Source: an uncultured Eubacteriales bacterium (GTDB lineage Bacteria > Bacillota > Clostridia > TANB77 > CAG-508). Taken from it: 64,000 nucleotides of DNA. Below the pieces are notes generated by a model, which saw only the letters and a program-made list of their open reading frames with translations, searched no databases and had not been told where the DNA came from. Below are positions 25,132 through 40,853 of this stretch, piece by piece (positions within the stretch are counted from its first letter, which is position 1; each line of letters opens with the position of its first letter). A program made the translations under genes and the position numbers. The stretch is from contig CASFHP010000021.1 in assembly GCA_949294555.1 (NCBI GenBank), positions 1,860-65,859 on the forward strand, written 5' to 3'.

Positions 25132-25161
25132 ATATATATCTTTAGTTCATAATGAAAAATG

Positions 25162-25324
25162 GAAAGCTATTATTATATTTTTCGCTATCCCAACACTTTA
25201 CATACTCTAACTAAATCAGCTCCCATGGGACTATCGCTGATTTAATAAGAGTATGTAGCGTGTCGGTCCAGTATGTAGCGTGTCGGTCCCCACGAAACCC
25301 GCTTAAAATATAATAATAGCTTTC
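25162..25324 (+). repeat. Family-A element, copy 1: ~123-nt conserved core inside a 20-bp perfect palindrome
   Basis: Arms 25162-25181 and 25305-25324 are exact reverse complements. The core 25182-25304 matches the reverse complement of 56958-57060. It contains a 20-nt tandem duplication (25250-25269 and 25270-25289). Confidence 0.8.
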
Positions 25325-25415
25325 TACTTTTTAATAACAAATAAATATAAATAAACTAAAGTTAGAATAAAAACACCTGAATTTACCAATAATAGTAATA
25401 AAGGTGATTTTTATT

Positions 25416-35979: not shown

Positions 35980-36038
35980 AATGCTAAATCGGTTCAAAGA
36001 AAGGAGAAAAGACTATTATATAGTCTATATCAGAAATT

Positions 36039-36956
36039 ATGAAAGATTTATCAAATAAAAATGTGCTTCACATAAGAGACAAAAACATAGAATATTTACA
36101 ATTTAGAAAATTGTTAGAATATAAGGATGTTATTCGTCATGCATATGCATTAGGTTTGGATGTGGGATTTAAAACAACTACAGTAGACCAAAAATCAGCG
36201 CCAATGGAAAGAATAGAATTGGCTAAACAATCCTATAAAAAGTTATGTAGTTGTATAGAGAGCGATTATGCCCATATCGTGCAAGCAAACCAAAACCATA
36301 CAGATGTTGTAAAAATTGTTGAAGAGAAAGTAAATAGAAATGAACCAGACTTTAGTTTGACAGAAGAAGGCATAGAAGATGGACTAATCACGAATCAAAA
36401 GAATTTAATGCTAGCAACAACAAATGCAGATTGTATTTTATTACTATTTTTTGACCCAGTAAAACATGTGATTAGTAATACACATTCTGGTTGGAAAGGC
36501 ACTTTGCAAAGAATATCAGTTAAAACGGTTCAAAAAATGGTAAAAGAATTTGGAAGCAATCCACAAGATATCATTTGTTGCATTTGTCCAAGTATTAGAA
36601 AATGCCATTTTGAAGTAGATAAAGATGTTAAAGACATGTTTGAAAATGAATTTCATGATTTAGAGAATGCCAAATTCATAGATATAGAAGATGGAAATAA
36701 AGAAAAGGTAATTCAGCCAAAAGATTTTATAGAGGAAAAAATAGAAAATGCAAAATGGAATATAGATACGGTTTTGATTAATAAAATTCTTCTTCAAAAA
36801 GAAGGATTAAAGCCAGAAAATATTATCGATTCAGGAATTTGTAGTGTTTGTAATTCAGACATAATACACTCTTATAGAATTGAAAAGAAAAATTATAATA
36901 CAGAAACAGCGATTATTGAATTAAAAGTTACAATTGACAGCCAATTTATAAAATAA
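36039..36956 (+). CDS. YfiH/PgeF-family (DUF152, laccase-domain) protein
   Basis: Motifs NQNHTD, TNADC and HSGWKGT. Confidence 0.8.
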   Translation: MKDLSNKNVLHIRDKNIEYLQFRKLLEYKDVIRHAYALGLDVGFKTTTVDQKSAPMERIELAKQSYKKLCSCIESDYAHIVQANQNHTDVVKIVEEKVNRNEPDFSLTEEGIEDGLITNQKNLMLATTNADCILLLFFDPVKHVISNTHSGWKGTLQRISVKTVQKMVKEFGSNPQDIICCICPSIRKCHFEVDKDVKDMFENEFHDLENAKFIDIEDGNKEKVIQPKDFIEEKIENAKWNIDTVLINKILLQKEGLKPENIIDSGICSVCNSDIIHSYRIEKKNYNTETAIIELKVTIDSQFIK

Positions 36957-36960
36957 TCTC

Positions 36961-37146
36961 AAAGCAGTAATATATAAATATTTTATTCATTAAATGGCTG
37001 GCATTACAAAATATACAAATTCTAACATTATAAAGCAGGCACCTCTCACAGCAAGTCTGAGATTCTCCTACTTGATAATGTAAGAATTTGTAATATTTCT
37101 TCATTAGCACATTTAATTTCATAAAATATTTATATATTACTGCTTT
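36961..37146 (+). repeat. Family-B element, copy 1: 136-nt core inside a 25-bp perfect palindrome
   Basis: Arms 36961-36985 and 37122-37146 are exact reverse complements. The core begins ttcattaaatggctggcattac and shares about 90 nt, nearly identical, with copy 2. Confidence 0.8.
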
Positions 37147-37239
37147 TGGGTTTAAGTAAGATAATTATAACTGTGAATTGTAACAATAAAAAATAGAAAG
37201 TAAAAAATAGAAAATAAAAAATAGAAGGATGTAATAAAA

Positions 37240-37794
37240 ATGTTTAAAACATGGGAAGAATTAGAAGAATCAATTATAAATTGTCAAAAATGTAAATTAT
37301 GTAAGACAAGACAACATATCGTATTTGGAACAGGAAACAAGGAAGCAAGATTGATGTTTATTGGAGAAGGACCAGGGGCAGACGAGGATAGATTAGGAGA
37401 ACCATTTGTAGGAAGAGCAGGAAAATTAATGGATTTAGCTTTTGAAACATTAGGTATTGATAGAAAAAAAGTATATATTGCAAATGTTGTAAAATGTAGA
37501 CCACCTGCAAATCGAAATCCAGAAGAAGATGAAGCAGTAGCTTGTTTAGATTATTTAAGAAATCAAGTAATCCTTATACAACCAGAAGTGATTGTCTTAT
37601 TAGGCAGTGTGGCTTTAAAAAATATTTTGGGAAAAGAATATGGCATCACAGCTTCTAGAGGAAAATGGGTAGAGAAAAAAGGTATCAAATATATGCCAAC
37701 CTGGCATCCAGCAGCTTTGTTGCGAGACGAAACGAAAAAAATTGATTTTATAAAAGATTTGCAAAAAGTGGTAGAAGAAATGGAACTCAAATAA
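37240..37794 (+). CDS. Family-4 uracil-DNA glycosylase (Fe-S type)
   Basis: CxxCxLC cysteines at the N-terminus, the GEGPGADED motif, and HPAALLR. Confidence 0.9.
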   Translation: MFKTWEELEESIINCQKCKLCKTRQHIVFGTGNKEARLMFIGEGPGADEDRLGEPFVGRAGKLMDLAFETLGIDRKKVYIANVVKCRPPANRNPEEDEAVACLDYLRNQVILIQPEVIVLLGSVALKNILGKEYGITASRGKWVEKKGIKYMPTWHPAALLRDETKKIDFIKDLQKVVEEMELK

Positions 37795-37854
37795 AACAGG
37801 AATATTGCAATCCATAGTTAGTAGTTACAATTTATGATTATTATTTAAAACCAG

Positions 37855-37991
37855 AATTATATTACTATATTTTATTCATTAAATGGCTGGCATTACGAAA
37901 TATACAAATTCTAACATTATAAAGCAGGCACCTCTCACAGCAAGTCTGAGATTCTCCTACTTGAAATTTCATAAAATATAGTAATATAATT
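37855..37991 (+). repeat. Family-B element, copy 2: 97-nt core inside a 20-bp perfect palindrome
   Basis: Arms 37855-37874 and 37972-37991 are exact reverse complements. Same orientation as copy 1. It lacks the 39 nt present at 37074-37112 in copy 1. Confidence 0.8.
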
Positions 37992-38184
37992 TCGGTTAAT
38001 TAGATGAATTTCTGATATGAATTGTAATGAATTATTTATGAAAAACTTATCTATTAAGTCAGTTTTATTGACGATGGGATTTAAACAGTGTAAAATATAA
38101 AAAATGAGAATAATCAGTTTTTCATTATAGAAAATTACATTTTGATAGTAAAAGATAAAGTTAATACTGAAAAGAGGCGGAAAA

Positions 38185-39444
38185 ATGATAAAAGAAATAG
38201 AAGAAAAAGTCAATTATTGCTTAAATTGTAAGGTAAGACCATGTTCTTTAAAAGGTTGTCCATTAAATAATCGTATACCAGATTTTATACAGGCATTAAA
38301 AAAAGAGGAATATTTTGAAGCGTATAAAATCTTATCAGAAACAACGGTGTTGCCAGGTGTGTGTGGAAGAATTTGTCCTCATGAGAAACAATGTCAAGGT
38401 TCTTGTGTAAGAGGAATTAAAGGAGAGCCTGTTTCAATAGGCGAGCTAGAAGCATATACATTTGATAAAGCACATGAATTAGGATATCATTTATCAGATT
38501 GCTATGAAAAAGTTGAAAAGAAAGATAAGAAAGTAGCAGTTATTGGAGGAGGACCAGCAGGACTAACCTGTGCAGGTTTTTTAGCAAAAGAAGGTATACA
38601 AGTTACAATTTATGAAAAGTACAATTATTTAGGTGGATTATTGATGTTTGGAATTCCAGATTTTCGATTACCAAAAGAAATTGTAGAAAATACTGTAAAA
38701 GATATTCTAGATTTAGGAATAGAAGTAAAATATAATCAAGAACTTGAAAAAGATTTTACTTTAAAAGATATAGAAAATGAATATGACGCCATATTTTTAA
38801 GCATTGGTGCAAATGTTTCTTCTAAAATGGGTGTAGAAGGAGAAGAGTTGAAAGGCGTTTATGGCGGAAATGAGTTACTTGAATATAATTTACATCCAGA
38901 TTACAAAGATAAAAAAGTAATTGTAACAGGTGGCGGAAATGTTGCAATGGATTGTGCCAGAACAATTAATAAATTAGGTGCAAAAGAAGTAACTGTTGTT
39001 TATAGAAGAGCAGAAGAACAAATGCCAGCAGAAAAAAAAGAAATAGCAGACGCCAAAGCAGAAGGTGTGAAGTTTGCTTTTCAAAACAATATTGTTAAAA
39101 TTTTAGGAAACGAAAAAGTAGAAAAAGTAGAATTAATCAAAACAAAATTAGTACAAAAAGAAGGGGAAAGCAGATTATCTCCTGTTAACATCGAAAATAG
39201 CAATTATCAGGTAGATGTTGACTACATCGTCATGGCATTAGGGTCAAAACCACAAGAATATGTAAAAGATTTAGGCTTAACATTGAATAAGTGGGGCAAT
39301 ATAGAAGTAAACGAAGAATATAAAACTTCTAATCCTAAGATTTTTGCAGGTGGAGATTTGGCAGGAATGAAAGGAACTGTTGCATGGGCAGCAAAATCAG
39401 GAAGAGAAGCCGCAAGAAACATTATTAAGAATATAACAAACTGA
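38185..39444 (+). CDS. Glutamate-synthase small-subunit-like NAD(P)H oxidoreductase (Fe-S + FAD/NAD binding)
   Basis: N-terminal Cys clusters (CxxC..C, CGRICPHEKQCQGSC) and two Rossmann motifs (VIGGGPAG, VTGGGNVAMD). Confidence 0.85.
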   Translation: MIKEIEEKVNYCLNCKVRPCSLKGCPLNNRIPDFIQALKKEEYFEAYKILSETTVLPGVCGRICPHEKQCQGSCVRGIKGEPVSIGELEAYTFDKAHELGYHLSDCYEKVEKKDKKVAVIGGGPAGLTCAGFLAKEGIQVTIYEKYNYLGGLLMFGIPDFRLPKEIVENTVKDILDLGIEVKYNQELEKDFTLKDIENEYDAIFLSIGANVSSKMGVEGEELKGVYGGNELLEYNLHPDYKDKKVIVTGGGNVAMDCARTINKLGAKEVTVVYRRAEEQMPAEKKEIADAKAEGVKFAFQNNIVKILGNEKVEKVELIKTKLVQKEGESRLSPVNIENSNYQVDVDYIVMALGSKPQEYVKDLGLTLNKWGNIEVNEEYKTSNPKIFAGGDLAGMKGTVAWAAKSGREAARNIIKNITN

Positions 39445-40574: not shown

Positions 40575-40684
40575 TCTAATTCTCCTTAGTATATACTTAT
40601 CTAACCATATTATACTATATGACAAGAGAAAAAATATTTCAATCTTATTAAATATTAATTACAGTTTGATTACAAAAAAATGTT

Positions 40685-40853
40685 TTTTTACATTATAGGA
40701 AATTACATTTCCTATAATGTAAAAAACAAATTGCACAGAAAAATTGTTTCACAATTTTTCGCACAACAAATCTTATACGCTTCTTGCTAGACCTTAAGTT
40801 AATATAGCAAATATAAAAAGTAGAGAAAATGTCTAGCGAAGCTAGATTTGTTC
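40685..40853 (+). repeat. Composite structured intergenic element, copy C3
   Basis: A 19-bp hairpin containing TATAGGAAAT at 40685-40725. An ATTGCACA module follows, with a hairpin that covaries relative to copy C1. It ends with a GC hairpin tctagcgaagctaga plus atttgttc. Confidence 0.55.

Follow-up and report, generated by a model that had tools for sequence, protein, structure and literature searches.

In a 64,000-nt stretch of contig CASFHP010000021.1 (positions 1,860 to 65,859; hereafter the window) from an uncultured Eubacteriales bacterium, the uracil-DNA glycosylase gene udg lies between two nearly identical direct repeats, and the locus raises the question of whether udg is the cargo of a composite mobile unit, as a first-pass annotation of the sequence had proposed, or a resident gene beside which the repeats arrived. 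That annotation was partly supported: each of the two is probably the inner core of a nested, non-coding mobile repeat that forms hairpins and of which two copies were acquired independently, and udg is a bystander, an ordinary resident gene rather than cargo. The host genome (G000) is a draft of 1.9 Mb in 68 contigs with ~28% GC, and the window is part of its contig C21. All genomes compared were draft metagenome-assembled genomes (MAGs), with one genome per species.

Anatomy of the two units

The direct repeats (36978-37075 and 37867-37964) have the same orientation and are 99% identical over 98 nt, with one A/G difference, as the first-pass annotation had described for the cores to which they belong. 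Each core (type B) sits within a palindrome, the two halves of which are referred to as arms, and both palindromes are split at the same junction, again in line with the earlier description; the two copies read ...ATATTTTA/TTCATTAAATGG...AATTTCA/TAAAATAT..., where slashes mark the junctions and the inner side starts with TTCATT. Absent from copy 2 are 39 nt (TAATGTAAGAATTTGTAATATTTCTTCATTAGCACATTT, 37075-37113 of copy 1), which form the right-hand half of a ~46-nt imperfect inverted repeat within the core. Their role in completing an internal fold-back was confirmed with a shift of 1 nt, and the 17-mers named as partners pair at 16 of 17 positions. They had been called extra nucleotides of copy 1, a description that did not hold: the 136-nt core is the standard form, and copy 2 is a deletion derivative, the sole copy in the genome with this 39-nt deletion.

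Outside the arms, unit 1 is bracketed by a 14-bp inverted repeat, GTTACAATTCACAG (36927-36940 and 37171-37184), referred to as the shell, and a spacer lies between shell and arms. The existence of this outer repeat around each whole structure had escaped the first reading. Folded as single-stranded DNA, unit 1 formed a single 260-nt rod (dG -52.5 kcal/mol, z -10.3), and unit 2, in which half of the core stem is lost, gave a weak fold (dG -22.1 kcal/mol, z -3.3). The units (213-258 bp) have no coding capacity, the sole open reading frame being a minus-strand frame of 58 codons attributable to chance, and a search of 36000-39000 against Rfam 15 at a permissive threshold (E up to 10) returned chance-level matches only (E > 1). 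Coordinates of all features are given in Table 1.

Table 1. Features of the udg locus, in window coordinates.
Feature	Position	Strand	Description
Unit 1	36927-37184	+	complete shell-bounded nested hairpin, 258 bp; ends GTTACAATTGACAG and CTGTGAATTGTAAC
Left target-site duplication, unit 1	36919-36926		AATTAAAA; covers last yfiH codons; 7/8 match to 37185-37192
Right target-site duplication, unit 1	37185-37192		AATAAAAA; 7/8 match to left copy
Left palindrome arm, unit 1	36961-36986		26 nt, 100% complementary to 37121-37146; arm family CAGTAATATATAAATATTTTA
Right palindrome arm, unit 1	37121-37146		26 nt, perfect partner of 36961-36986
Core B, unit 1	36986-37121	+	full-length, 136 nt; imperfect inverted ends of ~46 nt around conserved centre AAAGCAGGCACCTCTCACAGCAAGTCTGAGATTCTCCTACTTGA
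Unit 2	37814-38026	+	213-bp segment with degenerate shell ends, arms and shortened core; missing from sister species G010
Left palindrome arm, unit 2	37849-37875		27 nt, 93% complementary to 37971-37997, 21 nt perfect
Right palindrome arm, unit 2	37971-37997		partner of 37849-37875
Core B, unit 2	37875-37971	+	97-nt deletion derivative without the 39-nt right inverted end
yfiH (Cu-oxidase_4/YfiH-like gene)	36039-36956		frame runs into the terminal repeat of unit 1
udg	37240-37794	+	uracil-DNA glycosylase superfamily; Pfam PF03167, E 1.4e-36
GltD-like oxidoreductase gene	start 38185		next gene after udg
14-nt tandem repeat, three copies	37188-37229	+	AAAAAATAGAAAGT, AAAAAATAGAAAAT, AAAAAATAGAAGGA; between unit 1 and udg start

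Separate histories of the units and of udg

The udg gene is single-copy in the genome, and in many relatives (>15 genus members) it lies between the same neighbours without the elements, with the next gene 250-400 nt closer to it. The sister species G010 (92-94% identity) is collinear with the window across udg and the sequence on either side; the segment corresponding to 37814-38026 is cleanly absent (junction TTGCAATTC/ATGAATTATTT, with a 2-nt AT ambiguity), and unit 1 is present with a 140-bp internal deletion (without 36936-37075). Unit 1 is absent from two other species, G012 and G022, both with tight yfiH-udg spacing, and in G012 the yfiH-like gene ends ...GAATTAAAATAA, with the target sequence present once and immediately followed by a stop codon and the udg ribosome-binding site. 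Unit 2 is missing from G010 and from the other relatives with a measurable spacer, except G012 and perhaps G023.

G010 shares copy 1 and lacks copy 2; the two copies were probably gained at different times, and the units flanking udg acquired independently. The segment that varies between species is each whole shell-bounded unit, and not the pair together with udg; the earlier suggestion that udg and both copies might move as a unit is at odds with the separate presence and absence of each unit at the relatives' loci. Unit 1 lies one codon ahead of the former yfiH stop, and its insertion, which would date to an ancestor shared by G000 and G010, separated the yfiH-like gene from udg and extended the reading frame of that gene. 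The frame gains nine codons (VTIDSQFIK) from the terminal repeat (36927-36956) in the window; in G010 it continues with VTI and then a stop, and in G012 it ends ...ELK. The arrival of unit 2 downstream of udg, followed by the loss of 39 nt from its core, was most likely a later event. Unit 1 first and unit 2 later is the most parsimonious order, the alternative being an imprecise loss of unit 2 in G010. For annotation, the locus holds two intergenic repeat insertions beside a gene that is not mobile, one of which rewrote the last codons of a neighbouring gene and split a gene pair that is tight in relatives.

The shell and its target duplications

Sequence conservation of the shell begins exactly at GTTAC. 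The 14-mer GTTACAATTCACAG was present in 35 of 60 genus genomes, with up to 46 exact copies per genome, and the reversed control gave 0. Shell-end pairs in the genome enclose 58, 76, 104, 146, 183 and 251-256 nt, forming a nested series. The 8-nt flanks of 16 shell pairs matched each other at 8/8 positions in three pairs, 7/8 in two, and 6/8 in three, so that a match of at least 6/8 was found in 8 of 16 pairs, versus 3 of 240 in a cross-paired null. The shell is MITE-like (miniature inverted-repeat transposable element), with terminal inverted repeats and 8-bp target duplications.

In one species (G042), GTTACAATTCACAG ends bracket a multi-copy gene of ~560 codons with AAA-ATPase_like and PDDEXK_9 domains (31 matches, many of them breaking contigs; loci L132-L139, e.g. 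G042:C50:1-670 and C36:1-1130). This gene is read as cargo of the shell ends and not as their transposase, because copies of it elsewhere do not have the ends and several 14-mer-rich genomes do not carry it; as a candidate shell transposase the protein was rejected on this absence and on being bracketed by the 14-mer only in G042. An IS630-type partner of the shell was likewise rejected, DDE_3 being present in just 1 of 60 genus genomes, and no transposase partner for the repeat system was found.

A separate, unassembled repeat with at least four copies, bounded by inverted GTTACTATTCACAG, was noted at contig ends of G000 (left type at C1:94360, C4:107721, C37:1-98 and C50:1-97; right type at C2:110202, C16:85, C47:5806 and C58:84). 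One of its ends resembles a promoter region rich in A/T, a strong terminator hairpin lies at the other, and the repeat could be either the autonomous partner of the shell or an rRNA operon. Its interior is absent from the G000 assembly, and exact-pattern scans of genome and metagenome contig collections gave 0 matches; related fragments in G022, G062 and G075 yielded no transposase. A 16S gene was found neither in the G000 assembly nor in those of five relatives.

Census of cores and palindromic arms

A genome-wide census, proposed in the first-pass annotation as a check, identified a dispersed mobile repeat, with 26 matches to core B in the 1.9-Mb genome and ~49 regions when related cores were included, several of them at contig ends. 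Core type A has the ~46-nt ends of core B but a different central 40 nt, and types C and D are unrelated. Core D is the Family A of the first-pass annotation (window 25133-25353 and 56913-57105, in opposite orientations), a GC-richer hairpin (TCGCTATCCCAACACTTTACATACTC...) of which each copy lies in its own palindrome ending ...ATATTTT.

The palindromic flanks generalise: 65 of 69 cores of types A, B and D, from five species, are framed by perfectly complementary inverted sequence of at least 12 bp (median 24 bp, longest 40 bp). The refutation named in the first-pass annotation, family B copies elsewhere without palindromic flanks, was therefore not borne out. Beyond the arm, 5.5 of the next 15 positions are paired on average, which is the chance level. 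The four exceptions are shortened copies or copies cut by a contig end, save one with an 11-bp arm. Loopless perfect palindromes with arms of at least 12 bp number only 10 in the 1.9-Mb genome, so the arrangement is far beyond chance.

The two palindromes beside udg had been described as perfect and of unrelated sequence. The first part was borne out, fully for unit 1 and over 21 nt for unit 2, and the second held only in part: the arms form a few families, and the family of unit 1 (CAGTAATATATAAATATTTTA) is common to at least four other loci (C4:47316, C43:11236, C26:2273 and C27:7302). Arms co-vary, with AAAGCAGTAAT, AAACCAGTAAT and AAACAGTAAT each perfectly paired with its partner arm, and the outer arm parts look unrelated in other species. 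Among the mismatches of core stems, G:T accounts for 20 of 365 and is not enriched, which leaves no RNA-wobble signature.

Turnover of the cores

Cores that are at least 97% identical, including both udg copies, lie in arms that are 60-83% alike (30 flanking nt). Locus L079 of G010 and C4:100757 of G000 hold one A core in opposite orientations within identical arms, and a flipped core is probable at L081 as well. Cores are also exchanged. Between conserved shell ends, core B with one arm type in G010 (L066) is replaced by core A with another arm type in G000 (C43:11236); at a further orthologous locus, core B in G010 (L060) stands against core C in G000 (C34); and window 25133-25353 holds core D where its G010 orthologue (L069) has core B inside homologous arms. 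Unrelated cores share the A/T-rich junction, in line with the target-centre motif that had been proposed to be shared by the two core families, and appear interchangeable, as in this last pair; a single insertion machinery for the core families is a plausible hypothesis. Core loss by deletions between short direct repeats has left a footprint (ATGAA) at C7:22160, a perfect palindrome at C2:56687, and a single arm at C6:12217. Tip erosion of cores is common, and judged by these comparisons the core layer turns over independently of the arms.

RAYT-like genes and REP doublets

The genome encodes two Y1 transposases resembling those associated with repetitive extragenic palindromic sequences (REP-associated tyrosine transposases, RAYTs), at C5:16696-17424 (NCBIfam REP_Tyr_transpos, 81.5 bits, cut-off 80) and C13:12570-13316 (69.8 bits), and Y1_Tnp matches were present in 50 of 60 genus genomes. 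Each of the two genes has its own repeat family, with inverted copies on both sides; these families are termed REP-1 (GAGACAATTCGGGCCAGGTT..TTTTGTCTC) and REP-2 (GATGA..GGGGACGGAGCAAAAAATCATC). At three to six loci, A cores lie inside REP-1 doublets, so the cores also travel inside units resembling REPINs (REP doublets forming hairpins), though neither REP-1 nor REP-2 is present around the udg units.

A third outer palindromic family, REP-3 (GTCCAATTGGGGACGTTTCTTTTTGAGACA), was noted as doublets of 120-311 bp that also enclose arm-plus-core units (G000 C2:56620-56754, C6:12168-12287, C4:56388-56671 and others). An origin from IS200/IS605 elements, as in palindrome-associated transposable elements (PATE), was rejected, as neither the cores nor unit 1 resemble any of ten IS200/IS605-type loci from the genus.

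Proposed mechanism and alternatives

The favoured reading is that of a repeat in three layers. The outermost would be the MITE-like shell, with 14-bp GTTACAATTCACAG ends and 8-bp target duplications, moved as a whole by a transposase presumably encoded elsewhere. The second would be a palindrome of 20-40 bp, with arms that are perfectly complementary within a copy and differ between copies. The third, at the hairpin tip, would be a core of ~135 nt, itself a hairpin and of several types. Cores may flip through recombination between the arms, give way to other cores at a shared A/T-rich apex, and shrink from the hairpin tip through slippage deletions. The perfection of the arms would likely be kept by intrastrand template switching, by correction within the hairpin, or through a single-stranded hairpin intermediate as discussed for REPINs.

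Several observations weigh against this reading. The shell ends of unit 2 are degenerate (GTTACAATTTATGA at 37824-37837 and ATATGAATTGTAAT at 38015-38028, with 3 mismatches each), and no clear target duplication was recognised around this unit. No autonomous element with shell ends was found in 60 + 5 genomes, where the spacing of paired ends was always 60-520 bp; insertion sequences are often left unassembled in draft MAGs. Some insertions have extra bases outside the terminal repeat, and the G010 insertion L061 has an 8-bp duplication with no recognisable shell ends, which suggests that the 14-mer may not be the sole determinant. Intact empty target palindromes were sought, and the candidates (C2:56687, C27:9151, C53:5688 and C3:75102, and apparent empties of the shell and REP-1) could all be derived by deletion between short direct repeats or contained core remnants; the spacer at the G010 orthologue of the C3:75102 unit was too diverged for a clean empty site. 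Most differences between G000 and G010 may be either gains or losses, and the direction given to core-level events is inferred. Finally, the centre of core B (~43 nt, 37030-37073 versus L093-L109) is ~95% conserved between G000 and G014, G001 or G006, and udg DNA is ~78-82% identical; this could reflect recent spread, interspecies transfer, a binding site for mobility, or a host function, and it is the last of these options, functional constraint, that counts against the proposal.

Constraint of this kind would be expected of a structured element with a host function (an RNA, or a DNA hairpin acting as terminator, attenuator or protein-binding site), in which an apical domain is conserved, the stems need only pair, and spread is secondary. 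Besides the conserved centre, the co-varying stems, the very stable rod formed by unit 1, and the position of copies between genes, often just past stop codons, are consistent with such a role. It is nevertheless improbable, given that no Rfam match was obtained even at E up to 10, stem mismatches show no excess of G:T wobble, both orientations occur with flips in place, many copies including copy 2 are shortened or deleted at the tip, and occupancy and core type differ locus by locus between sister species, with target duplications present. Somewhat less improbable, and still unlikely, is that cores, arms and shell are REPIN-like hairpin units copied by one of the two RAYT-like proteins, with arm pairing reflecting a single-stranded hairpin intermediate. 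RAYTs are single-copy tyrosine transposases of the HUH type that act on hairpins of single-stranded DNA. Such proteins are available in this genome and Y1_Tnp is widespread in the genus, RAYT1 is flanked by inverted REP-1, REP-1 doublets all hold a core or its remnant, and compensatory changes like those in the arms are a REPIN trait (PMC3116915). The repeats that flank the RAYT genes are, however, REP-1 and REP-2 and not shell, arms or cores; neither of them surrounds the udg units; the 8-bp target duplications of the shell are not made by HUH single-strand transposition; and hitch-hiking of cores in REP-1 doublets would explain the association without a RAYT being the enzyme of the core.

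Two further alternatives have very little in their favour. Were the units invertons, or invertible DNA switches, the arms would serve as sites for a recombinase that flips the core to regulate neighbouring genes, which would account for perfect inverted arms around a segment of 95-135 bp and for the opposite core orientations at orthologous loci of G000 and G010. Yet promoter-like sites in the region are no commoner than in shuffled sequence (10 versus 9.8), the arms vary by locus with no recombinase consensus beyond the A/T-rich inner end, the core is near-palindromic so that flipping changes little, and perfect repeats of 25-40 bp invert without a dedicated enzyme; a switch is highly improbable. 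The least credible of the alternatives is the composite mobile unit of the first-pass annotation, in which udg would be carried as cargo between both flanking copies. The bracketing of a single gene by 99% identical cores in the same orientation is what suggests it, and the multi-copy protein gene between the same 14-bp ends in G042 indicates that cargo units exist in principle. Set against this are the single copy of udg, the same neighbourhood without the units in relatives, and the separate gain of the two units, of which G010 lacks unit 2 only. The units themselves encode nothing, differ in arms and shells and thus form no matched pair, and each has its own inverted ends, unit 1 also its own target duplication.

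Returning to the nested mobile repeat, a more speculative extension is that the cores are new gene-less mobile cassettes delivered to the apex of A/T-rich palindromes (...TTTTA/TAAAA...), where unrelated cassettes would compete and replace one another at the tip, a hairpin-templated process would keep or rebuild the arms, and the nested layers would be a record of repeated tip insertions. This extension is put forward tentatively and is regarded as possible but doubtful; a structure-specific or single-strand-specific enzyme, e.g. a RAYT-like HUH protein, would be a possible candidate for delivery to the apex.

Relation to known repeat systems

Bacterial MITEs include the Correia elements (CREE) of Neisseria, RUP of pneumococcus, Nezha, Chunjie and MITEAba12. 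Like them, the units described here are short, non-coding, multi-copy and intergenic, vary in presence between close relatives, fold into hairpins, have terminal inverted repeats with target duplications of fixed length (8 bp here), and can lengthen or disrupt the ends of genes beside them. They differ in that a parent insertion sequence sharing their ends was not found, the interior consists of stacked nested palindromes with an exchangeable tip module in place of one conserved sequence, nearly every core lies in a perfect palindrome of 20-40 bp of locus-specific sequence, and the same ends bracket multi-copy protein genes in one species. Reviews of bacterial MITEs include PMC3184786 and PMC10969869.

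IS1397 and ISKpn1 are insertion sequences that target palindromes, in REP loops. The core layer resembles such insertion at the apex of an existing palindrome, with a common A/T-rich centre occupied by different cores that are younger than the arms; it differs in that the inserted pieces are gene-less hairpins of ~135 nt and that the candidate empty sites are all explicable as deletions. Quasipalindrome correction by intrastrand template switching is a mutational mechanism in E. coli, phage T4 and yeast, and a general replication error pathway. It would explain arms that are perfect yet diverge between copies, and the abrupt end of complementarity; as a general pathway it defines no element family, and its action here is inferred.

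For REPINs, compensatory changes across the hairpins have been reported (Bertels and Rainey 2011, PMC3116915). The present units share with REPINs and RAYTs the long hairpin, in which some parts are conserved and the stem varies with compensating changes, persistence in a lineage, and RAYT genes with flanking repeats of their own, in whose doublets cores ride. They depart from them in the identity of the RAYT-adjacent repeats (REP-1 and REP-2, absent from the udg units) and in a shell with target duplications, and from classical REPs in being A/T-rich and much longer.

A limited literature search found no description of this nested repeat system, which is weak evidence of novelty, and the nested palindromic repeat system of this genus is apparently undescribed. 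This uncultured genus of gut Clostridia carries a nested palindromic system made up of a shell (14-bp ends and 8-bp duplications), RAYT-associated repeats, and exchangeable tip cores. These repeats break assemblies, alter gene ends and turn over fast between sister species, and the system offers a natural test of the survival and perfection of long palindromes in bacteria and of hairpin tips as insertion targets.

Other features of the locus

The 14-nt tandem repeat between unit 1 and udg overlaps both the right target duplication of unit 1 and the udg ribosome-binding site, and G010 has two copies of it, versus three in the window. The 39-nt deletion junction of copy 2 (37961-37990) forms a promoter-like site, TTGAAA-18 nt-TATAAT, directed toward the GltD-like gene, which is a consensus match only (11 of 12 positions). 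A dispersed family of perfect hairpins, TTTTTTACATTATAGGAAAT-nnn-ATTTCCTATAATGTAAAAAA, with stems of 20-22 bp, was noted at window 40684-40726 and also at C7:20074, C16:16923, C30:14824, C3:69999 and C26:18323 of G000, and resembles a bidirectional terminator.

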